Shown here: piece after piece, positions 8,546 to 30,062 of the stretch
Position numbering within the stretch: position 1 is the first letter of the stretch
How the letters are laid out: each line of letters starts with the position of its first letter
Origin: a virus
Lineage: Duplodnaviria > Caudoviricetes
Reading direction: 5' to 3' (one strand)
Virus record (IMG/VR): IMGVR_UViG_3300027991_000002
Coordinates: 1-64,000 of that record
Length of the DNA: 64,000 nucleotides
Made by a program: the position numbers and the translations under genes
Notes under the pieces: model-generated
The model's input: only the letters and a program-made list of their open reading frames with translations
Databases searched by the model: none
What the model was told of the DNA's origin: nothing

Positions 8546-8908
8546 ATGTCAGTTAAAAGAATACAACGAAAGAGAACTCTTGGGTGGAAGATGCCCGAAA
8601 ATACTGTTTATGTCGGACGCGGGACGAAGTGGGGAAATCCGTTTGCGGTTGGGAAGTCCATTCCGAAACATTGGGAAAGTGTTTTTGACGATGCGGATAA
8701 ATTTCACTACTTCAAATGGATGGGCGATGTCGAAACAAATGAGGAGGCGGTTTATCTATTCAAAAAATATTGTATTCCATCGGTAGATGAACTCGAAATT
8801 AAGGAGTTACGCGGAAAAAATTTAGCTTGCTGGTGCAAAGAGAAAGAAAGATTTTGCCATGCAGATGAACTTTTAAAAATTGCCAATACTGAACTGACTG
8901 TTAAATGA
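8546..8908 (+). CDS. DUF4326-family protein
   Basis: VYVGRGTKWGNPF..LRGKNLACWC..CHAD. Confidence 0.7.
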   Translation: MSVKRIQRKRTLGWKMPENTVYVGRGTKWGNPFAVGKSIPKHWESVFDDADKFHYFKWMGDVETNEEAVYLFKKYCIPSVDELEIKELRGKNLACWCKEKERFCHADELLKIANTELTVK

Positions 8909-9046
8909 AACCCGAAGAAAGAAGATTAAAGCAATGGCGCAACGGAAAGCGAACATTTACCGAATGGTTGCGCGACCCAAAATGCACATTACTTATAAAC
9001 AACATGGATTTTCCTGAGCCAATAATTTTTAAAAAGCTAAAGTCGC

Positions 9047-9520
9047 GTGAAAACCTGTAAAGATTGTTCCCGCCCCGTTTTCACGCATGGCTACTGTAAA
9101 TCTCATGCGGCAAAATATTACTTGGGGAAGAAGAAAAAAACTCGCGGACAGTTGGTTAAGGAACTTGACCGCGTTTTCAGCATCTTCATTCGTCAGCGCG
9201 GTATGGACGCTCGCGGGTTCAATAGCTGTTATACCTGCGGGACTACCGCCCGATGGCAGGATTTACAATGCGGTCACTTCATTTCCCGCAGACACTACTC
9301 TACCCGTTGGGATGAGAAGAACTGCAAACCGCAGGATGCAAAATGCAACGTGTTCAATCAGGGCAACGCGCCCGTGTTCGCGGCAAAACTCATTGAGGAA
9401 TACGGGGCAAGTATTTTAAATCTTCTCATCGCCAAAAAAAATAACCTGATGAAAATTACCAATACTGAACTTGAAATTTTAATTAACGAATATAATTCAA
9501 AGAACGAGAGTGTAAAATAA
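9047..9520 (+). CDS. NinG/Rap-like recombination endonuclease
   Basis: LDRVFSIFIRQR..CYTCG..QCGHFISRRHYSTRWDEKNC..CN. Confidence 0.75.
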   Translation: MKTCKDCSRPVFTHGYCKSHAAKYYLGKKKKTRGQLVKELDRVFSIFIRQRGMDARGFNSCYTCGTTARWQDLQCGHFISRRHYSTRWDEKNCKPQDAKCNVFNQGNAPVFAAKLIEEYGASILNLLIAKKNNLMKITNTELEILINEYNSKNESVK

Positions 9521-9540
9521 CAAACTAAAATTAATTTTCT

Positions 9541-9741
9541 ATGAACGAAAACCAATTTAAAAATGATGCGAAATCCATCGTGGATTTGTTCTTCAACACG
9601 AAACTTTTCAAAGATGACGTAACTCGCGATGACATGAATGGCACAGAAGAATTTATCGCCTACTGTATGCAAAGCAGATTTGAAAGTTATCTGAAAATTC
9701 AAAAACTTTTAGAGTCAATAGAAAAAAACAAAATCAAATGA
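9541..9741 (+). CDS. Hypothetical protein (66 aa)
   Basis: ORF in operon. Confidence 0.5.
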   Translation: MNENQFKNDAKSIVDLFFNTKLFKDDVTRDDMNGTEEFIAYCMQSRFESYLKIQKLLESIEKNKIK

Positions 9742-10088
9742 CCGAACCCGAAATTATCCTATCTTTACTTTCTCAAAAGAAGATGACACAGGGAGAGATT
9801 TTTCATTCAATGAAAGGCAATGAGCATAAATCATACGATACAGCTTTGCGCCACATCCGCCAAGTCATCCGCGACCTACGCTTTCAAGGGCATAAAATTT
9901 TGTCTGACGATTCAGGATATTGGATTCCTAAACCTGAAAACGAAGAACGCGAAGCCAAAGAATACATCGAGAGGATGGAGAGAACGGCTAAGGCGCAAAG
10001 TCGCGCATGGATGACGACATATAATCAGATGAAAAAAATTCTTAATGTGTCGAGTGAATATTTTGAGGGGACGGCTAAATTATTTTGA
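9738..10088 (+). CDS. Winged-HTH-like hypothetical protein
   Basis: RHIRQVIRDLRFQGHKILSDDSGYW pattern. Confidence 0.5.
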   Translation: MTEPEIILSLLSQKKMTQGEIFHSMKGNEHKSYDTALRHIRQVIRDLRFQGHKILSDDSGYWIPKPENEEREAKEYIERMERTAKAQSRAWMTTYNQMKKILNVSSEYFEGTAKLF

Positions 10089-10742
10089 ATGATGGAACTG
10101 AACCAAGAAACTTTATTCGGGAAGAAGGTAATCTCTACCATTAGTTTTAATGAACAGGAGATTATCAGAGATATTCTGTTTCTTCATGCAGATGGAAAAT
10201 ATATTGATTGCGACCCGACTTATTCGGTAGGGAATTTTTATAAAGACGGATTGCCAAAGCCAAGATTAAAGTTTGACCTTGCGCCTCAAATAGCAGGGGT
10301 AGTTCAAGCCGATGCGCGGAATTTGCCTTTGGAAGATTTGAGTATAAATATTTTAATGTTCGACCCGCCTTTCATTTGCGGCATACCAGCCGAAGCACCT
10401 ACCGGAATTATTCGTGAACGGTTTGGGTTCTACAAAAACGTGCCGGAGTTGTGGCAATTCTACCTTGACGCTATAAGAGAATTTGAAAGAGTAATTGCGC
10501 CAAAAGGATTATTGATTTTCAAATGTCAGGATACTGTTGATGGAGGTAAAAATTATTTTACTCATTGTCAGGTTTTGAATATGGCGGTTGAAACAGGTTT
10601 TTATCCCAAAGACCTTTTCATACTTGCCGCAAAAAACAGAATCGTAGATGTGCCGATGGATTCACAGCAACACGCTCGTAAATTTCATTCTTACTTTTGG
10701 GTGTTTGAAAAAATAAAATCAAAAGTAAATTATGTCAAATAA
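10089..10742 (+). CDS. SAM-dependent DNA methyltransferase (amino-MTase)
   Basis: QADARNLPL..LMFDPPF (motif IV); LIFKCQD. Confidence 0.7.
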   Translation: MMELNQETLFGKKVISTISFNEQEIIRDILFLHADGKYIDCDPTYSVGNFYKDGLPKPRLKFDLAPQIAGVVQADARNLPLEDLSINILMFDPPFICGIPAEAPTGIIRERFGFYKNVPELWQFYLDAIREFERVIAPKGLLIFKCQDTVDGGKNYFTHCQVLNMAVETGFYPKDLFILAAKNRIVDVPMDSQQHARKFHSYFWVFEKIKSKVNYVK

Positions 10743-10941
10743 CTCCTCCCAAGATACCATTTCATAATGAAACTAAAGTGAAAACCAAATCCGAATCCGA
10801 CCTCTTCGCCATCATACAATACTGCAACTACGCAGAAGAAGAAATAGAGATGAGTGAGAGTTTCAGAAAAACCATTTACGAAGTCCGTGCAGAGGCGATT
10901 CGGGAGTTTGACAGGAGGATAAAAAACTTAAAACAAAAAAT

Positions 10942-11262
10942 ATGAAAGACTGGCAAAAAGAAATTCAACCCAAGTTAGAAAAACTTAATGAGTTGACAAC
11001 GGAAATTTTAAATCAACTTCCAAAAGTTGAACCCGAAACCGATGTGATTGATAAAATACGTTCAGCGTGTTTTGACGGCTCTCCTCATTCTATAAATATT
11101 TGTATGAAAAAATACGCCTCTCATATCCTGAGTGAAGCGATTCGCAAAACAGAACTTTATATGAGTGATAAATGTGTTGTATCAACAACCGATGAAGCCA
11201 TAAAAATAGGAATGGATAATGCGTTGCAAATTTTAAAAAACTTTCAAAAAGATTTGCAATAA
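10942..11262 (+). CDS. Hypothetical protein (106 aa)
   Basis: ORF with an AT-rich leader. Confidence 0.5.
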   Translation: MKDWQKEIQPKLEKLNELTTEILNQLPKVEPETDVIDKIRSACFDGSPHSINICMKKYASHILSEAIRKTELYMSDKCVVSTTDEAIKIGMDNALQILKNFQKDLQ

Positions 11263-11270
11263 TTCCTAAA

Positions 11271-11309
11271 AATATTTCTTGCATTTGGAAAAATAATTGT
11301 TTACATTTA
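11271..11309 (+). promoter_or_regulatory. Bacteroidota-type promoter, second copy of the 14-mer
   Basis: AATATTTCTTGCAT 11271-11284 and TACATTTA 11302-11309. Confidence 0.55.
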
Positions 11310-11330
11310 CACTCACAAAACTACACTCAC

Positions 11331-11501
11331 ATGGGATTTTTCTCAAACATAATTTCCGCCACCGTCAAAGTCGCGCTAACCCCTGTGGCGGTAGTGAAAG
11401 ACGTGGTGAACATCGCCACAGGCGAAGAAGCGGATGCTACAAAAGACTTACTCAAATCTGCGGGTGAAGACGCGGAAGAAGCAATGGAGGATATAACATG
11501 A
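11331..11501 (+). CDS. Small hypothetical protein (56 aa; not in the ORF track)
   Basis: MGFFSNIISATVKVALTPVAVVKDVV..; follows the promoter and overlaps the next ATG. Confidence 0.6.
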   Translation: MGFFSNIISATVKVALTPVAVVKDVVNIATGEEADATKDLLKSAGEDAEEAMEDIT

Positions 11502-11689
11502 AAAGACCTGTCCTCTCCCTGAGAAAAAAAATAATTTATCTCTACAACAACCTGATTCTCCGTGCCTGCTACGAACTCGCTCACATGAAAATAATCTCTA
11601 ACAAAACTTTTGCCAAATGGTCGGACTCTCCGCGTGAAATAAAATGCAATCTCCAAACTTTCGGCAACACAACAAGAAAATTTAACTGA
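11498..11689 (+). CDS. Hypothetical protein (63 aa)
   Basis: Coupled ORF. Confidence 0.45.
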   Translation: MKRPVLSLRKKIIYLYNNLILRACYELAHMKIISNKTFAKWSDSPREIKCNLQTFGNTTRKFN

Positions 11690-11703
11690 CCACATAAAAG
11701 AAC

Positions 11704-11925
11704 ATGGAAGAAACCCGAAACGAAATTCAAGATGGACAAGAAGTAAAACCGCAGTTTGAAACCGAACTCGCGGCACTCATCAACAAATTCTCCAAAGAGA
11801 ACGGCAGCAACACACCCGATTGGATTTTGGCGGAATACCTCCAACGATGCCTCGACAACTTTAACTACACTTCTCGCGCTCGTGAAAAATGGTACGGAAA
11901 AAGTTTATCAATAGGCGGAAACTAA
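11704..11925 (+). CDS. Hypothetical phage protein (73 aa)
   Basis: ENGSNTPDWILAEYL motif; function unknown. Confidence 0.55.
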   Translation: MEETRNEIQDGQEVKPQFETELAALINKFSKENGSNTPDWILAEYLQRCLDNFNYTSRAREKWYGKSLSIGGN

Positions 11926-11944
11926 TTCCTGACAAATCCCCAAG

Positions 11945-12169
11945 ATGAAAGACCCAATGACCGAAAAGGAAATCTACGATACCAACATAGCCGTCCTCGA
12001 ACGCATCATCCTCACTTTCGCCAAGCAAATGAGAGACGATGGCGCGGCAATCTTCAACGATGAAACACTAAAACTCTACGTCAAACAATTTGTCGGCAAC
12101 TTAGATAACACAGAAATAAATTACCCCCCTAACCACAATCACCAACACAGTAAGTGTCTTTTAAAATAG
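11945..12169 (+). CDS. Hypothetical protein (74 aa)
   Basis: ORF only. Confidence 0.45.
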   Translation: MKDPMTEKEIYDTNIAVLERIILTFAKQMRDDGAAIFNDETLKLYVKQFVGNLDNTEINYPPNHNHQHSKCLLK

Positions 12170-12689
12170 GTAAGTAAGTTGATGATAAAAGTAAGGGCTT
12201 ACACCCCATTTTTCGGGGCATACCTTTTCACTCAGGGAAATTCACTTTTAAACAACCCATCCCCCTTACTGAAATCTGACTTTTGAATTCTGAAAACAGA
12301 AATTAAATATCTGTTGCAGGATGACAACAGGACTGCATTACGTTGCGAATATCAAGCGCAAGAGATAAGAGAATGATAATGTGTGTTTGAACGGGTGAAA
12401 CGTTATTACGCAATGTTATTCTATTGGCTTGCCGATGTGAACATGACAACATAAAAAAGTGTTTACCCGTATTTCTGAGCATATTTGCCACTATTTGCCT
12501 ATGTTCAACACGGAAATAATAATAAATTCGATGGCTAAAAGTGATTTGAAAAAGACCGCGAAAACAGTTTTTAGTTTGTGGTTAGGGTGAAAAGGGGTTG
12601 ACCTCTTGTTAAATAAATTTGTTTTTAGTGTTAATTAGTTTTTACTTGTCAATATACAGGAGAATAAAAATAGTTTGTAATTTTGTCGT

Positions 12690-12875
12690 ATGACACGGGG
12701 GGCGATAGTACGTGAAAGATTGATAAATAATAGGCGTTTTGTGCCTTTGAGTGATTATGCGCGGCTTTGTCGTATCAGTAGGCAGGGGGCGCGACACCGG
12801 CTTTTAAACAGTTTGCCAAAGGATAAAGTTTATCAGGATGATTTTTCGGCTTTGTGGTGGGTTTGTGTTGAGTAG
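12690..12875 (+). CDS. Small HTH-like protein
   Basis: VPLSDYARLCRISRQGARHRL. Confidence 0.5.
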   Translation: MTRGAIVRERLINNRRFVPLSDYARLCRISRQGARHRLLNSLPKDKVYQDDFSALWWVCVE

Positions 12876-12882
12876 TTCCTGA

Positions 12883-13126
12883 CTATTGGCGGGCGTCTAA
12901 TAAAGTTTTTAGCTCTGTCAATCTGTTAAGGTAGGGCGCGAAAGTTATCTGGGTTGCGTTCGCAGTAGCTTAGATGGCTGTTGATGAATTGGCGGACGTT
13001 GGTAATTTTTGTTTCCTTGTTTAGCTGTATTTGTTCGGGCAGGTTTGCCGCCTCGAAGTATGCGCGAAGGTCGTTAAGGGCTGCCGCGTTTTTTGGTTGT
13101 GGTTCAGGTGAACTTTCGTTACTCAT
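12883..13126 (-). pseudogene. DUF6965-like small protein with an apparent 1-nt frameshift
   Basis: LPEQIQLNKETKITNVRQFINSHL..; the expected PYLNRLTELK tail lies in a shifted frame near 12935. Confidence 0.45.
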
Positions 13127-13338
13127 CTGCTTATTATTTCAGTGTGTGAAAGTAAACAAAAGTTAGTCAATATGCAAGACATTTTTAATATTTATTTTTT
13201 ATTTTCTCCTCTGTAAATGATAGTTTGGTATGATGTTTGTTTTAATCTTTTAACATTAAAATTTAAACTTTGAAAGATACAATAATATATTAGAATCGTC
13301 TATTGTTTTGCGTCCACAAATGAACGTAATTTGCACCC

Positions 13339-13488
13339 ATGAAACAAACAACTAAAAACGACCTGATGACAATAGCAGAATACGCAGCTACTAAAGGAGT
13401 AAGCGTACAAACTATATATAATTGGATTGAGAAGAAAGATTTGAAAACGCGCAAGGTTGGAAAAATCACCTTAGTAATAGTGAACTAA
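13339..13488 (+). CDS. Excisionase-like HTH protein (49 aa; not in the ORF track)
   Basis: LMTIAEYAATKGVSVQTIYNWI. Confidence 0.65.
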   Translation: MKQTTKNDLMTIAEYAATKGVSVQTIYNWIEKKDLKTRKVGKITLVIVN

Positions 13489-13535
13489 TTTTTTTGTCTT
13501 ATATATTGAAACTTTTAAACTTACAAACAGTAAAC

Positions 13536-13691
13536 ATGAAAAAGAAATATTCAACAGCCATTATGTTAGCTTGCTTAGGACTAACAAAAAATACATTCAG
13601 GAGCCATGCCGATTTAGTACAGGCATTTAAGAAACAGCAAGCGAAGATACAAAAGGCGCAAGCATCTATAAATAAAATCTTTAATAACTGA
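13536..13691 (+). CDS. Hypothetical protein
   Basis: MKKKYSTAIM..; AT-rich leader. Confidence 0.4.
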   Translation: MKKKYSTAIMLACLGLTKNTFRSHADLVQAFKKQQAKIQKAQASINKIFNN

Positions 13692-13742
13692 CAAGCCGAA
13701 CACAGTCAACCAAAGTAGGCAACAAATTTAAACTACTACAAA

Positions 13743-14021
13743 ATGAAAACTATTACAACAAATCTTTACTCATTCGATGAACTGAGCGAAGAAGCAAAAA
13801 ACAAGGCAATCATTGAACAGATTAACTTTGAGATTGAAGTAGCGGACGAAAATAGCCCGTTTATTCCAGTCTTTGAAGAAATGGAACGGATGCACACCCC
13901 GTGGTTCACTGCTGCAACAATTTTTCACACACCGGAATATAAAAACATCATCATTGAAAATCTAAGAGTGAATGAATATACATTCCTCTCTGATGGTACA
14001 ATGCAAAACTCCCGGTCGTAG
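13743..14021 (+). CDS. Hypothetical early protein (92 aa)
   Basis: MKTITTNLYSFDELSEEAK..NEYTFLSDG. Confidence 0.6.
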   Translation: MKTITTNLYSFDELSEEAKNKAIIEQINFEIEVADENSPFIPVFEEMERMHTPWFTAATIFHTPEYKNIIIENLRVNEYTFLSDGTMQNSRS

Positions 14022-21283: not shown

Positions 21284-22315
21284 ATGCAAGCAACAGAAAC
21301 GAATGCCCTTGTTCAAGTAGTTGAAACAAGCGGACTCGAACAAACTAAAGGGCAAATCCTTTTAGGAATGTTCACCCCATACTTTAACCGTATGGCAGAA
21401 ATTGAGGGTAAAATTAATTTGCTCAATAAAGAAAATCCATCTCCTCAAGATGTGAGCGCGGCAAGAGATATTCGTATCTCTCTGATGAAAGAGGTTCGCA
21501 AGCCAGCCGAGCGCGTGAAGGATGAAGGAAAAAAGTCAATCCTTATTGAAGGTCGCCTGTATGACAATCTATACGGAGTGATTAACAACACCTCCAAAGG
21601 GCTTGAAATGCAATGTGAGCAAATTGAAAAGTTCGCTGAACTTCGAGATTTAAAAATGCGTGAAGAAAGAAAGGTTAAACGAGTAGAGCAACTTTCTCCC
21701 TATGTTCCTGATATTTCATTTTACGATTTACTCAATATGCCTGACGATGCTTTTAACTCATTACTTGCTACTCAAAAAGCAGGACAAGAGGCATTGTTAG
21801 CCCAACAAAAAAGAGAAGAAGAAGAAAGAATCGCAAAGGAAAAAGCTGATGCCGAAGCGCGTGAAGCACAGAGGGTAGAAAATGAACGGCTTAAAGCAGA
21901 GGCGGCAGAAAAGGAAAGGCAACTTGCCGAAGAACGCGCAAAAGTAGAAGCGGAGCGTAAAGCCGCAGAAGAAAAGTTACGCAAGGAAAGAGCCGAAGCC
22001 GATGCTAAAATAAAAGCCGCGCAGGAAGCGCAAGCCAAGGTTGAGGCAGAATTAAAAGCCAAAGCCGATGCAGAAGAAAAAGCGAAGCGTGAAGCCGAAG
22101 CAAAAGCAGCAGCCGAACTAAAAGCACAACAAGCCGCAGAAAAGAAAGCCGCGAAAGCACCTGACAAAGAAAAACTAAATAAATGGATTTCTGATTTTGA
22201 CTTGCAACCGCTTCTCACATTAAAAGATGCTGGCGCAAAACAAATTGAAGAAGATATAGTCAGAAAGTTTTCTGCATTTAAAACATGGGCATTGCAACAA
22301 ATCGAAACGCTATGA
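21284..22315 (+). CDS. Coiled-coil protein with an E/A/K/R-rich segment (343 aa)
   Basis: Long helical low-complexity region. Confidence 0.6.
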   Translation: MQATETNALVQVVETSGLEQTKGQILLGMFTPYFNRMAEIEGKINLLNKENPSPQDVSAARDIRISLMKEVRKPAERVKDEGKKSILIEGRLYDNLYGVINNTSKGLEMQCEQIEKFAELRDLKMREERKVKRVEQLSPYVPDISFYDLLNMPDDAFNSLLATQKAGQEALLAQQKREEEERIAKEKADAEAREAQRVENERLKAEAAEKERQLAEERAKVEAERKAAEEKLRKERAEADAKIKAAQEAQAKVEAELKAKADAEEKAKREAEAKAAAELKAQQAAEKKAAKAPDKEKLNKWISDFDLQPLLTLKDAGAKQIEEDIVRKFSAFKTWALQQIETL

Positions 22316-23322
22316 ACACAAAAGATTTTGAAGAAGTAAAAACCGTTTGGACGGATGACATTATCATTCACAAACAGCCGTATACCGTTTACAGAATAAA
22401 AGTTGGCGGAGGAAGAATTTACTATACGCTGGATGCAGACAATAATCCTACGTTCTATATTTCGCTCACCACCCTTACCAAGCATACGCTCCCAACGGGA
22501 GAACAATTAATAAAATGGATTGCTCAAACAGGGTACTATGAGTCTAAGAGATATATGAACGAAAGAGCAAACTACGGTACTTTAATGCACATGGCAATCG
22601 GACAATTCCTTATCTTAAAGTTTTGGAACTTTGAACAGTCCGAAGATTTTATTACCAACACTATTCAAGATGGGGCTATTGATGCTATTGAACCCGATAA
22701 GTATAATGATGACCTGAATCGTGACGTTGCCGCATTCGCTCAATTTTGTGTAGAGCATAAAGTAAGACCATTGGCAATAGAACTTGTACTTGTATCTAAT
22801 AAAGGGTACGCTACTTTAATTGACCTTGTGTGCAGAATGACTATTGAGGAGAAAGGGTACTTTGGAGAAACGTACAAGTCAGGAGTACAAAAAGGAAATC
22901 CGAAAGAATCAAAACGCGAAAAAGAAATCACCGCGCTGTTAAACTTTAAATCAGGCAAGAAAGGATTTTATGAGGAGAACGAAATTCAACTTGAGTTTGA
23001 AAAGAAATTGTTTGAAGAAAATTATCCTGAAATAAAAATTGACAAGATATTTAATTGGTCGCCTAAAGATTGGAACAACTCACCAACATATAATCTGAAA
23101 GACCAATCTGATTCATTGAACAAAGAAAAGGCAGATGCCCTACTTGCTATTGCCGCGATTGAGCTTATGAAAAAAACTCCGATGGAAAGAAAGTTAGTAG
23201 GCACACTTTCGCTTGGTCAAACTCCGCAAATTGAAGACAAAACTATTTATGATATTGTCAGGGAGCGAGCCGCGAAAAGGCACGTAGAGAATGTTCCGAA
23301 GAAAGAAGAAATGGCAATTTGA
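22312..23322 (+). CDS. PD-(D/E)XK-like exonuclease/recombination protein
   Basis: YYISLTT..ANYGTLMHMAI..AIELVL..YATLIDLVC..LNFKSG. Confidence 0.55.
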   Translation: MNTKDFEEVKTVWTDDIIIHKQPYTVYRIKVGGGRIYYTLDADNNPTFYISLTTLTKHTLPTGEQLIKWIAQTGYYESKRYMNERANYGTLMHMAIGQFLILKFWNFEQSEDFITNTIQDGAIDAIEPDKYNDDLNRDVAAFAQFCVEHKVRPLAIELVLVSNKGYATLIDLVCRMTIEEKGYFGETYKSGVQKGNPKESKREKEITALLNFKSGKKGFYEENEIQLEFEKKLFEENYPEIKIDKIFNWSPKDWNNSPTYNLKDQSDSLNKEKADALLAIAAIELMKKTPMERKLVGTLSLGQTPQIEDKTIYDIVRERAAKRHVENVPKKEEMAI

Positions 23323-23355: not shown

Positions 23356-23445
23356 ATAGAACGAAGAAGCACTAACGAATGTAAAATTTTTGCCATTGAA
23401 AACAGACAGATTAAAAATTTTATTTCGCTTTGTGCTGTGTTATGC
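23356..23445 (-). mobile_element. attC-like site 11 (90 bp, terminal)
   Basis: ATAGAAC..agcactaacgaatgtaaaattttt / aaaaattttatttcgctttgtgct..GTTATGC. Confidence 0.7.
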
Positions 23446-23531
23446 GAGTGCGCATGGATTTTATGCGGTGGGGTTCGTTCTTTTTTCTGTTTTCAATTTT
23501 TAGCGTTGGCATTAATTAAACAATCATAAAT

Positions 23532-23948
23532 ATGAAAAGGCAACAAACAATAGTATCGGAAAAAGAAATCCTGAAACTCGGTGGAGTTGATAAGGGATAT
23601 AAATTTGAACGCACCAAGCATGAACATGGGGATAGAGAAAAAATATTCTATAAGCAATGGAAGAAGGAAAATAAGCAGTTACGATGGCTAAACTTCGGGC
23701 AGGGAATATTGCAGGATTTATTTGCCATTACTGGTAATAATCCTTTCAACTTTATGAGGGGAGGATTGATAGGTTGGAAATTAATAATCAACAGGAGGGA
23801 TAGATACATTGTGGCAACAGTGATGCAATGGCTCGGAACAAATTGCGGTTGGTGCTGGCTTGAAGAAACACTTAGGAAGTGCGGGTACAGATTAGAAAAA
23901 ATTGAGCGGGAGGAAAAAATTGAAAACAGAAAAAAGAATGTCGCATAA
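23532..23948 (+). CDS. Cassette gene, hypothetical (138 aa)
   Basis: Stop TAA lies inside the GCATAAC core box. Confidence 0.65.
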   Translation: MKRQQTIVSEKEILKLGGVDKGYKFERTKHEHGDREKIFYKQWKKENKQLRWLNFGQGILQDLFAITGNNPFNFMRGGLIGWKLIINRRDRYIVATVMQWLGTNCGWCWLEETLRKCGYRLEKIEREEKIENRKKNVA

Positions 23949-24000
23949 CGGCAAACGCTTTATGCCGTTATTTTCAATGGCATTAAAGCGTATGTTCTAT
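23943..24000 (-). mobile_element. attC-like site 10 (58 bp)
   Basis: Minus strand: ATAGAAC-ATA-CGCTTTAATGCC-loop-GGCATAAAGCG-TTTGCC-GTTATGC. Confidence 0.85.
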
Positions 24001-24025
24001 TTAGGTTTTTAAAATTCTTTGAGCG

Positions 24026-24238
24026 ATGGCAAACAAAATATGCAGAATAACAATATTAGCTTTCATGTTCGGAGATATACCGAAAGGAATTGAGAACGGA
24101 TATGATGATTGGGACTTAGAAAACGGAATACAATATTGTGAAGAATTGATGCGCTATGAAGGAATGACACATGAACCGATGGATAAGTTTGAGTTGAAGA
24201 AATATATTGAATGGGCAAAACAGAAATTGAAAGAGTGA
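24026..24238 (+). CDS. Cassette gene, hypothetical (70 aa)
   Basis: ORF lies between matching cassette-end IRs. Confidence 0.6.
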   Translation: MANKICRITILAFMFGDIPKGIENGYDDWDLENGIQYCEELMRYEGMTHEPMDKFELKKYIEWAKQKLKE

Positions 24239-24261
24239 GTGTGGCAATTTTAAAAACTTGA

Positions 24262-24598
24262 ATAGAACGTTGCTCGGATTGAAGAATGTAAATTAAAATT
24301 ATAGCGATGCACAAGAACAGAACAGCAAACGGATTAAGGTTGCAAGAGCAACATAACCAACGTTACAAGAAAATGTTGATAGGAAAAAAAGCGAAGGACG
24401 GGCGAACGGTTATTAACACAGAATGGATTGGAAACAGCACATACGGATGTGTTCGATTATTTTTCGATAATCAAACCGATGATTTATGTAGTAGTACAAT
24501 GGGATTTAAACCGACAAGAGAGGATTTTACAGACAGGTACGGAATTACATGGTGAGCGATGGCAATTTTAATTTATTTCTTTCAATCTGGTGTTAGTT
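24262..24598 (-). mobile_element. attC-like site 9 (337 bp, gene in loop)
   Basis: ATAGAAC..ggattgaagaatgtaaattaaaatt / aattttaatttatttctttcaatct..GTTAGTT. Confidence 0.8.
24307..24555 (+). CDS. Cassette gene inside the attC loop, hypothetical (82 aa)
   Basis: ORF bracketed by AGCGATG direct repeats. Confidence 0.6.
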   Translation: MHKNRTANGLRLQEQHNQRYKKMLIGKKAKDGRTVINTEWIGNSTYGCVRLFFDNQTDDLCSSTMGFKPTREDFTDRYGITW

Positions 24599-24628
24599 TT
24601 AGTTTTTAACAGGCAAACAAAATAGAAA

Positions 24629-24820
24629 ATGGAAAAGTTATCAGACAAAGCAGAAAAGAGAATTAAGAAAATCTATCCTGATGCGAGGGCAGAGAGGGAT
24701 GGCGCAATGTTCTTTATAGTAACTGACTTACTTAAAGGAGAGGACAGAACTTTAGGTGGTGGATTTAGCAGAGATGGCGCGTGGTGTAGCGCGGGTTGCT
24801 CTGTGCCTGTTAAAAATTGA
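24629..24820 (+). CDS. Cassette gene, hypothetical (63 aa)
   Basis: Stop codon abuts the AACTAAC core box. Confidence 0.6.
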   Translation: MEKLSDKAEKRIKKIYPDARAERDGAMFFIVTDLLKGEDRTLGGGFSRDGAWCSAGCSVPVKN

Positions 24821-25166
24821 AACTAACGAGGAAGGATTTGTGAAGTAAAATTTTCGATTAAAAACTATAACCTTTAAAAACAGAAAAGCGATGGAAGTAA
24901 AAGGATTTTATATCAGAAGCAATGGCGACCCTTCGGTTGGTATATTCTCTGCTCAATGGGAATTGCGAAATGACTTCGTATTTGACGACATAGAAGATTT
25001 GGAATATTTCAGGTCGGGGCTTGCGCGTTTGCTCGGTGAGCATTGCGGGGAGAGGTGCTATGTGCAAACTTTTGAGGAGTGGGCTGAACAAATTAAATTA
25101 GAAGAAAAAATGTGTAGTGACGCACAGAAGGAAGAAAATTTTATTTCATCAAATCCTGTGTTGTCG
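24821..25166 (-). mobile_element. attC-like site 8 (346 bp)
   Basis: AACTAAC..aggatttgtgaagtaaaatt / aattttatttcatcaaatcct..GTTGTCG. Confidence 0.8.
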
Positions 25167-25253
25167 GATAGTTTGCCTTTTGATTTAGCAAGTCATCCTG
25201 ACACAGAAGCTGACGGACATGTATTCTGCGGTAAATGTGGAAAAGAAAAGTGA
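24891..25253 (+). CDS. Cassette gene, hypothetical (120 aa); starts in the attC loop and reads through the arm
   Basis: ORF track; ends 10 nt before CGACAAC. Confidence 0.6.
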   Translation: MEVKGFYIRSNGDPSVGIFSAQWELRNDFVFDDIEDLEYFRSGLARLLGEHCGERCYVQTFEEWAEQIKLEEKMCSDAQKEENFISSNPVLSDSLPFDLASHPDTEADGHVFCGKCGKEK

Positions 25254-25263
25254 GGCAAATTTC

Positions 25264-25795
25264 CGACAACGGGAAGGGGATTGAAGAATGTATTTTAATT
25301 TTTTAGCATGGGCAAACTAATGGTAACACCAATATTCCAAAACGAAGCGTTCGCGTTCATCGAACAACACCACAGGCATCATAGAAAGCCAGTAGGCAGC
25401 GTGTTTCAGATTGCAGTGAGCGAGGGTGAGCGTGTGGCAGGGGTGGCGGTTGTTGGCAGACCAAACGGACGAAAACAGCAGGACGGATTTACATTAGAAG
25501 TTACACGGCTATGCACAGACGGAACTAAAAATGCCTGCTCAATGCTTTATGCAGCTTGCTGGAGAGCAGCCAAAGAATTAGGTTATCGAAAACTGATTAC
25601 ATACATACTGAACACTGAGCCGGGGACATCATTAAAAGCAAGCGGGTGGAGATGCGTTGGGGAGCGCGGTGGCGGGAGTTGGAACGTACCGAGCCGCCCC
25701 CGTGTTGACAAACATCCGTTGCAGAAAAAATTGTTATTTGAAATCGAGTAGCGCGATGGGAAAATTAAAATATTTCTTTCAATCCCATGTTGTTG
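25264..25795 (-). mobile_element. attC-like site 7 (532 bp, gene in loop)
   Basis: CGACAAC..gggattgaagaatgtattttaatttt / aaaattaaaatatttctttcaatccc..GTTGTTG. Confidence 0.8.
25308..25751 (+). CDS. XF1762-family / Mom-like GNAT-fold protein (cassette gene in attC loop)
   Basis: FIEQHHRHH..GVAVVGRP..LEVTRLCTDG..NACSMLYAACWRAAKELGYRKLITY..SLKASGW. Confidence 0.75.
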   Translation: MGKLMVTPIFQNEAFAFIEQHHRHHRKPVGSVFQIAVSEGERVAGVAVVGRPNGRKQQDGFTLEVTRLCTDGTKNACSMLYAACWRAAKELGYRKLITYILNTEPGTSLKASGWRCVGERGGGSWNVPSRPRVDKHPLQKKLLFEIE

Positions 25796-25828
25796 GCAGC
25801 GTAGCTGAGTTTGCTTTTCGCAAATTGC

Positions 25829-26038
25829 CAACAACGTCACGCAGGATTTATGAAGGATTTTTTACGATTTTAAAACCAACAAATATGAAAACACCAAAAG
25901 AAATTTTAGAAGGAAAACAAGCATTCAAAGATTTCCTGTATAAAGCACCCGACTGGATTAGGGAAGACATTATTGCAGCAATGATGGAATACGCATTGGA
26001 GCAAGTAAAAAATCTTTCATTAAATCCTGTTGTTGTTG
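25829..26038 (-). mobile_element. attC-like site 6 (210 bp)
   Basis: CAACAAC..caggatttatgaaggattttttac / gtaaaaaatctttcattaaatcctg..GTTGTTG. Confidence 0.8.
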
Positions 26039-26145
26039 GGCGCAGCGAACAGTTAAAATCTGACTTGTACAAATTCAGGGATATGTATTGTCAAAATATT
26101 GACTTAGCTACCATAGATGAATATGTTGACGGCTTAGGATTTTAA
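25887..26145 (+). CDS. Cassette gene, hypothetical (MKTPKEILEG..)
   Basis: ATG 25887 follows an AT-rich leader; the upstream extension in the track crosses cassette boundaries and was rejected. Confidence 0.55.
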
Positions 26146-26149
26146 TTGC

Positions 26150-26280
26150 CAACAACGTTCATCGGATTTATTCTCGTTGCATTAAATGATAAAAACTTAA
26201 ACCATAAATAAAACTCATTATGAAAAACAAACCTACGATTAAAAAGAAAGCCAGCAATGGAATGAAATCCGTTGTTCATG
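26150..26280 (-). mobile_element. attC-like site 5 (131 bp)
   Basis: CAACAAC..cggatttattctcgttgc / gcaatggaatgaaatccg..GTTCATG. Confidence 0.75.
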
Positions 26281-26540
26281 GCAGTGCGGATAAATGGTCA
26301 AAAATTAAGTGGAGCAAAAAAGTTTTGCAAAAAGCGCAGGAAAATCATATCTGGTTGAACGCTTTTGATTGCGTAAGACCGACACCTGCATTCTGCGAAA
26401 GTCTTGGTAGGTCAATCATCAATAAATTACGGGATGAAGAAAATTTAATCCCGATGAGTGGCATTACATCGGATGTTGAAGCGATGCGAGAGATTGCAAA
26501 ACTTACCCCGATAATGTACATGAGCATTAACAAGAGCTAA
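26220..26540 (+). CDS. Cassette gene, hypothetical (106 aa)
   Basis: Starts in the attC loop and ends before CATGAAC. Confidence 0.6.
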   Translation: MKNKPTIKKKASNGMKSVVHGSADKWSKIKWSKKVLQKAQENHIWLNAFDCVRPTPAFCESLGRSIINKLRDEENLIPMSGITSDVEAMREIAKLTPIMYMSINKS

Positions 26541-26554
26541 GATGTGAGCATTGC

Positions 26555-26611
26555 CATGAACGGTAGAGATTGTTGCCGTTAATTTCAATGGCATACAATC
26601 TAATGTTATCT
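26555..26611 (-). mobile_element. attC-like site 4 (57 bp)
   Basis: Minus strand: AGATAAC-ATTA-GATTGTATGCC-loop-GGCAACAATC-TCTACC-GTTCATG. Confidence 0.85.
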
Positions 26612-26643
26612 GCCGTTTTGGATTAACTAAATAAATATAAATT

Positions 26644-26949
26644 ATGAAAGCAAAAGAGTATGCACAAAGGGTAACAAGTACAGAAAATGTTCAAGATGCA
26701 ATGACTGAGCTTGGCAAATGCGGAAAAGATTTTTTCAACGAATTTATCGCAATGAGAAAATCACGTAACATAAAAACCGATGATGGATTATTAACGCTGG
26801 TGAAAGAGTTCGATAATAAATTCAGAACATTTTCTGTACTTGTGGATTCACACTACAAAGGGATGGTTAAACCAAATGGATTCATTGAACTGCTTCGGGA
26901 GTTTGTTCCTGTACTTGCTAATGAATATGAAAGGAAAAATGGCAGATAA
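26644..26949 (+). CDS. Cassette gene, hypothetical (101 aa)
   Basis: Stop TAA lies inside the AGATAAC core box. Confidence 0.65.
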   Translation: MKAKEYAQRVTSTENVQDAMTELGKCGKDFFNEFIAMRKSRNIKTDDGLLTLVKEFDNKFRTFSVLVDSHYKGMVKPNGFIELLREFVPVLANEYERKNGR

Positions 26950-27778
26950 CGGTTACGGCTTTAAGCAGTGGGGATTATTAGCACAAATGTTCAATCGAAG
27001 CGATAAAAAAAATAAAGAAAAATTTTTAGGGAGGCATTTTTAATTTAATCATTTAATCATAAATAAAACAAAATGGAAAAAGTAACAAACACAGCAAAGA
27101 ACCCACGACTTGAATGGTTGATGGGTGGAAATCCTAATGCTATTGAAGCACAGGAAGTGCAAGGACAAAAGGAACTTGTGAAATCATCACAACTACCAGC
27201 GAAAGTAAATTCGCCAAGAGGAGTGAACATTGAGGAGCAATACGCCTTGATGGGAATAAAAGTAATTGGCAAAACCAAAGGAGATGAATTATTCCTTGAT
27301 GTGGAATTGCCAAATGGGTGGAAGAAGGAAGCAACCGACCATTCAATGTGGAATAAATTGGTTGATGATAAAGGAAGGGAAAGGGCAAGTTTCTTTTACA
27401 AAGCTGCATTTTATGACCGAGATGCTTTTGTGAATTTTAGCACACGGTATAATTGGAATGCCAATTACGAGGATAAGGACAATGTGAGCTACTTTGTAAA
27501 AGATAACTCCATAGGTGAAATTGTATTTGAAACAGAAAAGATGAGTAAAGATGTAAAACAGCCGAACTACTTTAAAATACAGGATGAGTTACAAAACCAA
27601 TGTAAACAATTTCTGAAAGACAAGTTCCCTGAACACGAAAACATAAATGCTTATTGGAATTAAATCATTTAATCATTAAGAGCGTGGGCAAAAATTTTTC
27701 TTTATTTTTTTTCGTTCATATCAGCACGAACTTAAATATGGAGCGATACACCCCATTGCTTTAAAGCCGATGTTATGC
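26944..27778 (-). mobile_element. attC-like site 3 (835 bp, gene in loop)
   Basis: AGATAAC..cggctttaagcagtgggg / ccccattgctttaaagccg..GTTATGC, plus inner arms aaaaaaataaagaaaaattttt / aaaaatttttctttattttttt. Confidence 0.8.
27073..27663 (+). CDS. Cassette gene in attC loop, conserved phage hypothetical (196 aa)
   Basis: GRERASFFYKAAFYDRDAF motif; flanked by a 14-bp direct repeat. Confidence 0.65.
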   Translation: MEKVTNTAKNPRLEWLMGGNPNAIEAQEVQGQKELVKSSQLPAKVNSPRGVNIEEQYALMGIKVIGKTKGDELFLDVELPNGWKKEATDHSMWNKLVDDKGRERASFFYKAAFYDRDAFVNFSTRYNWNANYEDKDNVSYFVKDNSIGEIVFETEKMSKDVKQPNYFKIQDELQNQCKQFLKDKFPEHENINAYWN

Positions 27779-27940
27779 GAAGTTGCCAATACCAAATTCA
27801 AAAAGACAAAAAACTCATTGGCAATTTTGCATAACGTTCGAGGATAAACGAAGTGCATGAGTAACCGAAAAATTAACTGAACAGCAAGTAAGAAATTTTA
27901 ATAAAAATATTTTTAGGGAGGGAATTTAAAAAACAACATT

Positions 27941-28099
27941 ATGAAAATAAACTTTGATGTGAACCTGCCGGATTGGTTTGTAATAACCGGACTTACTGTT
28001 TTTACAGTTTGGATGATTCTTGACATAATAAAAAACTGGCTCAAACTTATCATTTGGAATTATGAGAGGAAAATTAAAAAAATGGAAAACGAAAAGTAA
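27941..28099 (+). CDS. Small membrane protein (52 aa; not in the ORF track)
   Basis: MKINFDVNLPDWFVITGLTVFTVWMILDII..; TAATG coupling to the next gene. Confidence 0.5.
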   Translation: MKINFDVNLPDWFVITGLTVFTVWMILDIIKNWLKLIIWNYERKIKKMENEK

Positions 28100-28524
28100 T
28101 GGCAATCTTAAACTATACAACCTCCATTGATTCTGAAAAGACAATCGGAGAGATTCAAAAATGCTTAGTGAAGCACGGGGCAATGAAAATCACCACTGAT
28201 TATCAGAACGGGATTCCATGCGCTGTTACTTTCTGCCTAATCATCAAAGAGAATATGGTTGGGTTTGCATTGCCAGCAAATTATTCAGGCGTTCTCAGGG
28301 CAATGAAGCGAGATGGAAAAGTTCCGCGCTCAAAATGCACAGAGGAGCAGGCAATAAAAGTTTCATGGAGAATAGTGAAAGACTGGGTTGAAGCGCAGAT
28401 GGCAATAGTTGAAGCTGAACTTGCACAGATGGCGGAAGTGTTTTTGCCGTATGCAGTTACAAAGAATGGAAACACTCTTTGGAAACAGATGGAAGGAAAC
28501 GGAATGTTATTACTTAACTCTTAA
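28099..28524 (+). CDS. Cassette gene in attC loop, conserved phage hypothetical (141 aa)
   Basis: NYTTSID..WRIVKDWVEAQMA..EVFLPY. Confidence 0.65.
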   Translation: MAILNYTTSIDSEKTIGEIQKCLVKHGAMKITTDYQNGIPCAVTFCLIIKENMVGFALPANYSGVLRAMKRDGKVPRSKCTEEQAIKVSWRIVKDWVEAQMAIVEAELAQMAEVFLPYAVTKNGNTLWKQMEGNGMLLLNS

Positions 28525-28692
28525 CCTTTTTACAATTTGAAAAATTGTGATGAGCGTAGGCAAAATATTTTTATTAAAATTTCTCTAACCGTAATTGACA
28601 GTACAGATGGAAGCATTTCGTTTATCCTTTGTTATCAGATGAAAAATTATCCCTTTTGAGCGCGGGATGCTCGTAATTTAATAATTACAAAA

Positions 28693-28890
28693 ATGAAAAC
28701 ATGGGAATATAAAATTAATAGCGTAAATGAATATGATGCTTTTGAAAATGTTGGCGGCTCGGTTGCCGAAAGAATTTTAGATGGAGCGTCAAAAGACGGA
28801 TGGGAATTAGTGTCTGTTGTCGGAATAAACACAATGGTAATTTTTTACTTTAAAAGAGAATTAAATAATGGAGGTGCGGTGGCGGGATAA
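28693..28890 (+). CDS. DUF4177-like protein (cassette gene)
   Basis: WEYKI..GWELVSVV..FYFKRE. Confidence 0.6.
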   Translation: MKTWEYKINSVNEYDAFENVGGSVAERILDGASKDGWELVSVVGINTMVIFYFKRELNNGGAVAG

Positions 28891-28899
28891 TTTTTTTTC

Positions 28900-29027
28900 T
28901 GATAACGGATGAAGATAAAAGAAGCAGCCCTAAATAGAATGTTCAGCGGGTACGTAACCGATAGGGTAACTGAACTTAGGCAGACCTCCGATTTTGCTCG
29001 GCTGTTTCTTTTTATCTTGTGTTGTGT
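28900..29027 (-). mobile_element. attC-like site 1 (128 bp)
   Basis: TGATAAC..aagataaaagaagcagcc / ggctgtttctttttatctt..GTTGTGT. Confidence 0.8.
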
Positions 29028-29085
29028 GAGAGCATAGGGATTTCAGGCGATGGGCAGTTTTTAACTTAAAATAATTTTAAAGCGT

Positions 29086-29400
29086 ATGGCAAAGATTTAT
29101 TTCAGCAAATACAATGATGAGGAAGTGGCTTATACATTGGACTATTGGAAAACTTACATGGAAGAAAACCTCATTGAAGAAATGACATTGTTTGAAGGCA
29201 AGCGAATGACAGGCGAGGGCTATTTCTATTGTAAAGAATACTTTGAAGTTGGATTAGCGAGAGAGTCATGTGGAAAGATATGCGAGGGATATAAGCCGAA
29301 CAATGGCAAGAATGGCAGATGCAAACATTATGGATATTGCTATGAGCCAACAGATAAAAGGTTGGTGTTGCAAGCGGGCGGAAAAATTATTTTAAGTTAA
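29086..29400 (+). CDS. Cassette gene, Cys-rich hypothetical (104 aa)
   Basis: CKEY..CGKICEGYKP.NGKNGRCKHYGYCY. Confidence 0.6.
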   Translation: MAKIYFSKYNDEEVAYTLDYWKTYMEENLIEEMTLFEGKRMTGEGYFYCKEYFEVGLARESCGKICEGYKPNNGKNGRCKHYGYCYEPTDKRLVLQAGGKIILS

Positions 29401-29407
29401 AAATTTC

Positions 29408-29470
29408 ACACAACAAATATATGTATTTTTCTCTTACAACTATTTGAAACTTAAACCATAACACCATGCA
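29408..29470 (-). mobile_element. Candidate attI site
   Basis: Minus-strand G|TTGTGT core matches cassette 1 but has no attC arms; lies just upstream of the int-like gene. Confidence 0.55.
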
Positions 29471-29492: not shown

Positions 29493-30062
29493 ATGAATAA
29501 CGCTCTCATTTATGCTTTAGCTTGTCCGGAAACAGGTCAAATAAAATATGTTGGCAAAACAAATCATTCATTAAAAAGAAGATTGCAAAATCATATAAAT
29601 AACAAGAGGTCAAAAAGCAGGTGCTCTTTTTGGATTAGAGAATTAAAAAGTAAAAATATCTATCCTGAAATAATATTACTTGAAACAGTAATTGATGGGC
29701 TATGGAGATTTAGAGAATCAGAATGGATAAAAAACTTTGGCAGAGATAATTTATTAAATGAAAACGCAGGCGGTGGAGGAATGGGGACATCTAAGATAAA
29801 TTATGTTTTTTCTTTTTCCGAATCTCTTTCACAATATTCTGAAAACACTAAGAGAAACTATTTAAGCATAGTAAAAATATTCTTACATGAACATGGATGC
29901 GTTTCAACATCAGCAGTTATTATTAATAAAAAAATGATTGAAAATTATATGATGAGATTTAAGAATAGACACAGTTATAATCAAACCTTGTCTGCATTAA
30001 AAAAATTCTTTTTATTTTTAGGTCAACCAAGAAAATTAAATGCAATTAAATATTGGTATTAA
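29493..30062 (+). CDS. GIY-YIG nuclease fused to an integron-type integrase N-terminal (SAM-like) domain; no catalytic recombinase domain
   Basis: LIYALACPETGQIKYVGKT..RL..H..E (GIY-YIG); YSENTKRNYLSIVKIFL..SYNQTLSALKKFF..QPRK (IntI-like core-binding domain). Confidence 0.7.
   Translation: MNNALIYALACPETGQIKYVGKTNHSLKRRLQNHINNKRSKSRCSFWIRELKSKNIYPEIILLETVIDGLWRFRESEWIKNFGRDNLLNENAGGGGMGTSKINYVFSFSESLSQYSENTKRNYLSIVKIFLHEHGCVSTSAVIINKKMIENYMMRFKNRHSYNQTLSALKKFFLFLGQPRKLNAIKYWY

Follow-up and report, generated by a model that had tools for sequence, protein, structure and literature searches.

Integron cassettes are usually described as a gene with a short local hairpin, and the first acquisition of such a recombination site by a gene is an open question. 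The sites, called attC, measure about 57-141 bp. Folded single-stranded hairpins also serve as sites for Xer recombinases, as in the CTX phage and similar elements, and in the pdif modules of Acinetobacter plasmids genes are bracketed by inversely oriented XerC/XerD sites with a conserved 28-bp duplex. A further kind of gene shuffling is found in the hyperplastic regions of T4-type phages, where PeSL cassettes carry promoter/stem-loop direct repeats and are exchanged by homologous recombination. Canonical attC sites comprise an R box, an unpaired central spacer, an L box with extrahelical bases and a variable terminal structure, with a G following AAC (PMC2727003). According to the abstract and the section on clusters of attC sites without an integrase (CALINs) of a recent survey, such clusters occur in virulent phages, including those of Bacteroidota hosts (Qi et al. 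2023, PMC9892861). Here we describe an array of small gene cassettes in the first 64 kb (positions 1 to 64,000, hereafter the window) of the 75,207-bp phage record IMGVR_UViG_3300027991_000002. We conclude that the long inverted repeats at its cassette ends probably pair to form the stems of attC-like sites folded from single strands, in an integron-like cassette array of a Bacteroidota phage. Folded recombination sites in which they act as functional stems account for them better than scars do.

The array occupies 23375..29414 on the + strand and was divided, from a junction table with exact coordinates and from folds, into 11 cassettes (K0 to K10) with AA|C borders; the C of each AAC lies at 23375, 23949, 24268, 24827, 25270, 25835, 26156, 26561, 26950, 27835, 28906 and 29414. 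Read along the + strand, every cassette runs from AA|C through an L stem-loop, GTT and an R stem-loop to AA|, and the two stems are parted by unpaired spacers that differ in length, with 6-8 nt following AAC and 3-4 nt preceding GTT. The plan of two nested imperfect repeats that characterises attC is found at 11/11 junction sites, in the sequence and in the folds. The two kinds of unit alternate, and the repeat pairs are nested with none crossing. R units start with GTT, end with AAC and have unit-specific arms of 9, 23, 24, 19, 11, 10, 14, 15, 19, 23 and 9 nt in array order. L units fill the space from AAC| to |GTT, some as hairpins of about 40 nt and others as long stems (13-26 bp) whose related arms follow the GGATTGAAG / CTTTCAATCC pattern. 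As in attC, the base after AAC is usually a G (AAC|G at 10/11 junctions) and the L stems contain extrahelical bases, the recurrent flaw being an extra bulged T in the right arm together with one G.T pair (24833, 25842 and 28913, and 9947 in the related phage G001 described below). AAC and GTT are invariant at 11 unit ends, while the adjoining four bases often violate RYYYAAC/GTTRRRY, for example in ATAGAAC and CGACAAC. No open reading frame (ORF) of the window crosses an AA|C junction, whereas three (g5, g7 and g8) cross T|GTT; with the AA|C phase on the + strand, each of these three genes therefore lies within one cassette. In size, seven window sites depart from attC, with loops of 100-790 nt that include whole genes; a site of about 60 nt at 23941-24002, and sites of about 95 nt in a second related array (L138), fall within the usual range.

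We searched for inverted repeats of 16 nt or more (9-nt seed, complementarity of 85% or higher, gap of 10-1500 nt) and compared them with 200 dinucleotide shuffles. The 6.06-kb array holds 10 such pairs against a shuffle mean of 0.44 (maximum 3), and 8 against 0.07 at a length of at least 19 nt. The remaining 69 kb of the phage hold 5 pairs, or 0.44 per 6 kb, so that long repeats are not equally common around non-cassette genes. A class 1 integron control, consisting of two arrays (aadB-cmlA6 and blaVIM-blaVIM-aadA1-aac(6')) with six cassettes in 5.9 kb, has gene-spanning repeats that do not exceed 11-12 nt, none reaching 16 nt; the stems measure 7-12 bp in these cassettes versus 9-27 bp here. 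This comparison with bacterial integrons had been proposed in the original prediction, which was made from the letters of the window and claimed that the cassette ends are inverted repeats far longer than a 7-bp core. Its quoted pairs were verified at 23994-24016/24246-24268 (21/23), 24592-24615/24804-24827 (22/24) and 28631-28653/28884-28906 (21/23), and two more are present as two 8-bp helices (25160-25178/25253-25270) and a 13-bp helix (26274-26287/26548-26561). The additional perfect repeat of about 20 bp that it had assigned to its first cassette corresponds to 23478-23501/23915-23938, which is perfect over 24 nt and forms 26 bp when folded. We found further perfect pairs of 23 nt at 27005/27690 and 27891/28562 and of 21 nt at 29058/29383, as well as AT-rich pairs around g3, g5, g6 and g7. 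The stems are not uniformly long, lengths of 9-15 bp and 19-27 bp being mixed. Altogether, this confirmed that the long repeats are real, specific to the array and longer than those of textbook cassettes, although the control cassettes themselves already have 11-12 nt, not 7.

Each cassette was circularised in silico at AA|C and folded with DNA parameters. In 11/11 cassettes the minimum-energy structure of the + strand holds both an R and an L stem, adjacent to each other and with two loops. The R stems, whose GTT...AAC arms are the repeats noticed in the original prediction, measure 9-24 bp and the L stems 13-26 bp, and the inner arms of the K0 R unit form 26 bp. The original prediction had envisaged excised circles as dumbbells with a long central stem and genes in either loop. 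The two loops are borne out, but the central stem proves to be two stems, R and L, with an asymmetric unpaired spacer. Genes do occupy either loop: cargo lies in the R loop in K0, K1, K7 and K10, in the L loop in K4 and K8, in both in K2 and K9, and runs from loop to loop in K3, K5 and K6. The dumbbell is a sound prediction, but its geometry is that of an ordinary attC site, with longer stems.

The folds of the + strand are far more stable than those of shuffles, and in 11/11 cassettes more stable than those of the - strand, by -2.4 kcal per 100 nt compared with -0.46 for other + strand gene regions and +0.92 for - strand gene regions. Among 37 stems in three arrays, mismatches on the + strand comprise 36 G.T/T.G and 3 A.C/C.A (p = 3.6e-8), therefore the + strand is the one that folds best. 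Since the recombinase gene is at the right-hand end, the - strand reads into the array as the integron top strand does, and we infer that the + strand is the counterpart of the integron bottom strand, whose layout it shares (5'-...AA|C-G-spacer-L-loop-L-spacer-GTT...-3'). The array is also skewed on the + strand, with 23.0% G and 14.3% C versus 20.2% and 18.9% in the other + strand gene region, which fits frequent single-strandedness or selection for G.T pairing.

At the right-hand end of the array, g15 (29493..30062, + strand) encodes a GIY-YIG nuclease domain and the N-terminal core-binding (SAM-like) domain of an Xer/IntI-type recombinase. Its catalytic domain is not present and has left no remnant downstream, and the full-length fusion exists in a relative. 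This relative, the 74,657-bp phage IMGVR_UViG_3300027819_000009 (G001), was matched by a 20-mer from the small L hairpin; the 20-mer's match in L121, one of two, was a chance match within a gene and was discarded. G001 has an array of the same build, with about 10 units, arms of 21-27 nt and the same wobble pattern, and at its end lies a 394-aa gene (L124:5690-6874) whose product combines a GIY-YIG domain (39% identity to g15) with a complete Xer/IntI-like recombinase. The recombinase scores 98 bits on PF00589 and 162 bits on its best family, the XerA-type NF040815. On TIGR02249, where the cut-off is 265, the enzyme of the relatives reaches 131.8 bits, in two stretches. It can be aligned to IntI4 (2a3v) as far as residue 207, and its closest structures are those of XerA, followed by IntI4. 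About 15 further full-length fusions of GIY-YIG and recombinase are found in the protein database (clusters P0122-P0136), and the nearest cellular relatives of the recombinase are chromosomal Bacteroidota enzymes.

Within the joined L123/L124 coordinates 8875-13805, G001 contains five 100% identical, ORF-less, GC-rich cassettes of about 147 nt (TGCGATCCGC...CTTTTGGGGAA), each with an L hairpin and an R hairpin and without an Rfam match. They are bounded by ...TAA|TGCG...GGGGAA|CGG, and each sits at the right end of a different R unit. The five identical copies fix the crossover at AA|C and indicate recent activity where the enzyme is intact. Judged from these borders, cassettes in G001 are shown to move with a single AA|C crossover per site, and the layout of the ORFs in the window agrees. 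The element itself looks like a selfish or regulatory cassette that has recently spread.

The second related array, L138, is followed directly by the gene for a 271-aa Xer-like recombinase that has no GIY-YIG domain. Its sites resemble ordinary attC, and its cassette-end repeats of 9, 10, 9, 27, 22, 10 and 25 nt show that short and long stems coexist. Immediately ahead of the recombinase-type gene, the arrays of both L138 (9893-9915) and the window (29412-29440) end with AAC| and then A(T)AAATATAT, possibly a shared attI-like insertion site. Screening of 80 Bacteroidota chromosomal loci with related recombinases for repeat density showed L151 and a few others to be repeat-rich. At L151:7958-8885, in a contig of a Saprospiraceae metagenome-assembled genome, three hairpins with 21-nt arms and a 113-nt loop lie 237 nt apart upstream of a related chromosomal Xer-type recombinase, and these repeats may represent a host-side array of the same system.

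In L138, an unrelated ORF is enclosed by nearly the same arms as those of the K1 R unit, a C.G pair being replaced by A.T as a compensatory change. A pattern search with the K1 left arm found nine more phage contigs, giving an arm family (GTTNTATTTAGGTTTTTAAA, a 23-bp pair) of 10 contigs with at least 7 unrelated ORFs of 50-73 aa, various of which stop at a TAA or TGA within the arm. The source phages measure 50 to 288 kb where complete and encode an Xer-like recombinase in some cases and not in others. Positions 1-23 are paired in 10/10 members and pairing ends after positions 23-26; compensatory changes occur at positions 4, 21 and 22, while T.G at position 9 and G.T at position 11 are invariant. 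Homologous cargo keeps its arms (L236/L240; L232/L233/L237), the small L hairpins covary between paralogues and with G001, and ORF-less hairpin cassettes, such as that at 27772-27835, also have long wobble-bearing stems. In these alignments the arm pairs are shown to be conserved through compensatory changes, and the stems are independent of the enclosed gene. Lack of conservation in homologous cassettes, which would have spoken against the extended repeats, is thus not what is seen, the repeats being kept in homologous units of other phages.

In all three arrays, most long pairs have two direct copies of a G-rich motif, GCGNNGG(C/G)A, one immediately inward of each arm (in the window at 23502, 24022, 24555, 25753, 27681, 28553, 29046 and elsewhere). 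Of the copies in the genome, 7/9 on the + strand and 0/6 on the - strand are inside the array, and the left copy often includes the ATG of the cargo. Between K1 of the window and its counterpart in L230, arm and motif are common on both sides and the sequence between them differs, and the breakpoints of cargo swaps fall at motif copies. Such breakpoints inside the arms, together with the unrelated ORFs, suggest that cargo is inserted into, or replaced within, hairpin cassettes that were already there. The original prediction had instead proposed that cassettes are built from hairpin-capped intermediates, which finds no backing here: no covalently closed ends are evident, and one arm pair surrounds unrelated ORFs with the breakpoints inside the arms. 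One stem pair surrounds unrelated genes in ten phages, a hint that new cassettes arise by the entry of genes into ready-made hairpins. A more speculative, and rather unlikely, extension would have two tiers, in which an Xer-type recombinase moves cassettes at AA|C and a second step loads or swaps cargo at GCGNNGG(C/G)A, one arm length (21-27 bp) inside each stem, perhaps by a cut of the fused GIY-YIG nuclease at the CNNNG within this motif, followed by repair, with ORF-less hairpins as precursors of gene cassettes. If true, this would give a concrete, testable answer to the origin of integron-type cassettes.

In the mechanism that we propose for attC-like folding, the R and L stems of the single-stranded + strand would form two duplex binding sites flanking the unpaired spacer, and an Xer-type tyrosine recombinase would cut between A and C. 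The enzyme would be supplied in trans by a co-infecting phage or the host, because the recombinase is intact in relatives and truncated here. The long R stem would join the cassette ends across 200-700 nt of cargo and would provide a fully duplex binding site for an Xer-type enzyme without the integron-specific insert. The complementary strand would be penalised by the fixed G.T wobbles and bulged T's, which would so determine strand choice. The excised + strand circle would then be a two-stem, two-loop dumbbell, and the arm pairs behave like reusable hairpin 'vessels' whose cargo would be exchanged between the two direct copies of the G-rich motif inside the arms.

Several points weigh against folded recombination sites. 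Neither an excised circle nor an empty site was seen for this phage. No PF00589 match and no other tyrosine recombinase were found in the 75-kb genome, and with the catalytic domain of g15 missing, the adjacent IntI-type integrase with an extra domain that marks a complete integron is absent. Cassettes with 9-11 bp stems occur within the same arrays as the long stems, so long stems are not needed for membership. L236 and L240 share homologous R units with unrelated flanks on both sides, which means that T|GTT may be a second exchange point. In the arm family, left-arm positions 1-20 were preset by the search pattern, limiting the independent evidence to position 4, positions 21-23 and the right arms. 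A C-to-T mutation bias on one strand could lie behind part of the G.T excess, given that G exceeds C in the array. Finally, all cargo genes have the + strand as their sense strand, therefore the wobble bias suits a role in RNA equally well.

Such a role is the alternative that survives best, although we consider it unlikely. The arms would pair in the polycistronic sense transcript, so that a helix of about two turns brackets each ORF for RNase III-like processing, stability or translational insulation, and the recombination boxes would be only the outer few base pairs. The G.U-compatible mismatches on the sense strand (36 vs 3) would be explained, as would the uniform length of the long arms (21-27 nt), their position in leaders and gene ends, where they supply stop codons, and the strand-specific G-rich motif adjoining both arms. 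However, the arms are continuous with the GTT/AAC boxes, the same stems are present in ORF-less cassettes (27772-27835 and the GC-rich element of G001), and some stems fall within coding sequence (g5, g7, g8 and g9). An Rfam scan of the array gave no known RNA family, and a sigma-70-type scan, which covers Bacteroidota poorly, revealed no excess of promoters or intrinsic terminators. The RNA and recombination readings are inseparable to the extent that no array was found whose cargo orientation opposes the favoured strand.

It is distinctly improbable that the repeats are a by-product of cassette origin, in which linear pieces with hairpin-capped ends, or snap-back copying, left terminal repeats as non-functional scars. 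Several inner arm pairs are indeed perfect over 23-24 nt, arm pairs are nested in K0, K8 and K10, and a GIY-YIG nuclease domain is encoded at the array end. Scars would be expected to decay randomly, yet the arms in 10 phages show compensatory changes, fixed wobbles and a sharp end of pairing at 23-26 nt. The arms are also identical around unrelated cargo; they therefore predate it and were not derived from it. A protelomerase or other enzyme of hairpin ends did not turn up, none having been specifically sought.

A still weaker candidate, which we regard as very improbable, is a chain of pdif-like Xer modules with double-stranded sites in alternating orientation, where AAC| and |GTT are both crossovers and the GTT...AAC units and the units between them each move as modules. 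The unbroken chain with inverted sites bracketing every gene, the two alternating unit types, the Xer-type recombinase and the confinement of L236/L240 homology to GTT...AAC +/- 5 nt would all be accommodated. Against this, the arms vary by unit without a conserved 28-bp sequence, three ORFs span T|GTT, the five copies of the G001 element define AA|C only, and the strand-asymmetric wobbles favour a folded single strand. L232 and L233 are homologous over the unit and the 45 nt preceding it, which make up a whole AA|C cassette. An 11-6-11 duplex site of the pdif/Xer type is absent, as the junctions have no more than AAC/GTT and a loose GGATTGAAG-type box in common. Repeats arising by chance in AT-rich intergenic DNA, which a G+C content of 37% and the many arms made of A/T runs might suggest, are refuted by the shuffles and by the nested, non-crossing arrangement with the same architecture in two other phage arrays, and have virtually no probability left. 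Terminal repeats of the transposon type were likewise rejected, the arms being unlike between units.

The stem-loops of the cassettes, all on the + strand, are as follows. The R stem-loop of K0 (23439..23949) has 9-nt outer arms, GTTATGCGA and TCGCATAAC, and inner arms at 23476-23501/23915-23940 (26 bp in the fold, 24 perfect), with g1 (23532-23948) as cargo. K1 opens with a geneless L hairpin (23955..23991; helices of 8 + 7 bp, core TGCCGTTATTTTCAATGGCA) that has a paralogue at 26567-26601 and an orthologue in G001, its outer stem covarying. In its R stem-loop (23994..24268), 23-nt arms matching at 21/23, with both mismatches G.T/T.G at positions 9 and 11, enclose g2 (24026-24238); this is the arm pair that acts as 'vessel' in 9 further phage contigs. 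The L stem-loop of K2 (24274..24590; arms 24274-24300/24564-24590, helices of 10 + 12 bp with an internal bulge) holds g3 (24307-24555), and the R stem-loop (24592..24827; 24-nt arms, 22/24, T.G and G.T at positions 9 and 11) holds g4 (24629-24820), whose stop codon is inside the right arm. K3 divides g5 (24891-25253): its 5' three-quarters lie in the L stem-loop (24833..25157; arms of 23 and 24 nt, 22 matches, a bulged T in the right arm and one G.T), and its 3' end and stop lie in the R stem-loop (25160..25270), formed by GTTGTCGGATAGTTTGCCT and AGGCAAATTTCCGACAAC as two 8-bp helices. The L stem-loop of K4 (25277..25786; 26-nt arms, 22/26) encloses g6 (25308-25751), and its geneless R stem-loop (25789..25835) has 11-nt arms, GTTGTTGGCAG and TTGCCAACAAC, that fold into 9 bp around a 25-nt loop.

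The gene of K5, g7 (25876-26145), is split between an L stem-loop (25841..26030; arms of 24 and 25 nt, 23 matches, a bulged T and one G.T) with the 5' half and an R stem-loop (26032..26156; arms of about 10 nt followed by an inner 12-bp helix) with the 3' half. Likewise, g8 (26220-26540) of K6 starts in the L stem-loop (26163..26271; helices of 7 + 6 bp) and has its body in the R stem-loop (26274..26561), where GTTCATGGCAGTGC and GCATTGCCATGAAC form a 13-bp helix with one G.T. K7 consists of a geneless L hairpin (26567..26601; helices of 7 + 7 bp), the paralogue of 23955-23991, and an R stem-loop (26605..26950; 15-nt arms, 14/15, one G.T) around g9 (26644-26949). A perfect 19-nt inverted repeat lies wholly in the coding sequence of g9 (26674-26692/26825-26843), its inner arm ends being GTTC and GAAC. 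In K8 the L stem-loop (26956..27769; helices of 9 + 9 bp, CGGCTTTAAGCAGTGGGG and CCCCATTGCTTTAAAGCCG) contains in its loop a nested GTTC...GAAC unit (26990-27731) with perfect 23-nt arms at 27005-27027/27690-27712 around g10 (27073-27663). The direct repeat AATCATTTAATCAT flanks g10 inside these arms (27046-27060 and 27663-27677), and the same 15-mer, with a similar AT-rich leader (AGGGAGGCATTTTTAATTTAATCAT...), is found beside an unrelated G001 gene (joined 11502-11517). The geneless R stem-loop of K8 (27772..27835) has 19-nt arms, 17/19 with both mismatches G.T, and a 26-nt loop. K9 carries g11 (27941-28099) and g12 (28099-28524) in its L stem-loop (27840..28629; outer 17 bp, inner perfect 23-nt pair 27891-27913/28562-28584) and g13 (28693-28890), with its stop in the right arm, in its R stem-loop (28631..28906; 23-nt arms, 21/23, one T.T and one G.T). 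The last cassette, K10, has an L stem-loop without an ORF (28913..29017; helices of 8 + 9 bp, with the bulge and G.T of other L stems) and an R stem-loop (29021..29414) with 9-nt outer arms GTTGTGTGA and TCACACAAC and inner arms of 22 bp (29057-29078/29383-29404) around g14 (29086-29400), after which the array closes with AAC|AAATATAT. Stop codons of cargo lie inside right arms at 23946-23948, 26947-26949, 24818-24820 and 28888-28890, and in g1 and g9 the TAA of ...TAA|C itself serves as stop, ending exactly at the crossover.

The phage record has a G+C content of 39% and a terminal overlap of 127 bp. About 15 small + strand ORFs lie between an upstream gene for a recombination-type exonuclease, g0 (22285-23322), and the downstream GIY-YIG gene g15. 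Homologues of g0 with 31-46% identity are called 'exonuclease' in distant cultured Bacteroidota phages, and the g0-based search otherwise yielded only distant loci, L001 and L002, both without arrays of this type. A Pfam scan left nearly all cargo ORFs without a match, g6 being Mom-like (PF25680), and no cargo protein is common to the window, G001 and L138 arrays. A megablast of window positions 20.5-30.1 kb against 50,697 phage records gave no match, and a 15-mer of the L box as query gave about 118 chance matches, none of them at repeat-rich loci.

In this locus the site has, in effect, grown around the gene, with both stems able to reach 20-27 bp and genes lying in either loop or across both. 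Such a structural variant tests what an Xer-type recombinase without the integron-specific insert needs from a folded site in terms of stem length, wobbles and bulges, and it provides sequence evidence for a strand choice written in G.T pairs. Empty hairpin cassettes as vessels, with breakpoints at a defined motif, offer a lead on cassette formation, and the locus also yields a practical annotation rule for accessory-gene exchange in Bacteroidota phages.

Compared with the described systems, the PeSL cassettes of T4-type phages are alike in shuffling small accessory phage genes via short repeated structured elements, but, being direct repeats, they differ from gene-spanning inverted repeats that carry GTT/AAC boxes and adjoin a tyrosine recombinase gene. 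A T4-type PeSL assignment was rejected here, the flanking repeats being inverted and unit-specific and the scan for promoters and terminators, with its poor coverage of Bacteroidota, giving no excess. The pdif modules likewise form chains of small gene modules with inverted sites on each side and two alternating types, whereas the arms here are unit-specific and carry strand-specific wobbles and bulges. In CTX, an Xer-type enzyme acts on a hairpin from one specific strand that mimics a duplex core site, but there one attachment site serves the entire phage genome, with no cassette array, and the enzymes are the host XerC and XerD.

The likeness to integron attC sites is found in the order of R box, unpaired spacer, L box and terminal loop, in the invariant AAC/GTT and the G after AAC, in the AA|C crossover on the folding strand, in the bulged L-stem bases and in variable sequence with kept structure; a recombinase gene at one array end completes it. 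The differences from integrons are that R stems reach 27 bp versus 7-12 bp in class 1 cassettes, that the terminal loop holds whole genes or front halves of genes, that cargo reads towards the recombinase end and that the same arm pair is reused around unrelated cargo. In addition, the family's recombinase is of the Xer type, falls short of the integron-integrase cut-off and, in one branch, is joined to a GIY-YIG nuclease. Full-text literature searches gave no description of gene-spanning 20-27 bp stems, arm reuse or a fusion of GIY-YIG and recombinase. The phage CALINs, as presented in the abstract and CALIN section of their report, are similar in being phage-borne attC-type arrays with no working integrase in the same genome, and differ in that their sites were found with standard attC models and have ordinary size; those parts of the report do not mention gene-spanning 20-27 bp stems, genes in loops or arm reuse (PMC9892861). 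CALINs and attC sites in phages are already published (PMC9892861), and what is new here is the long stems and the reuse of arms.

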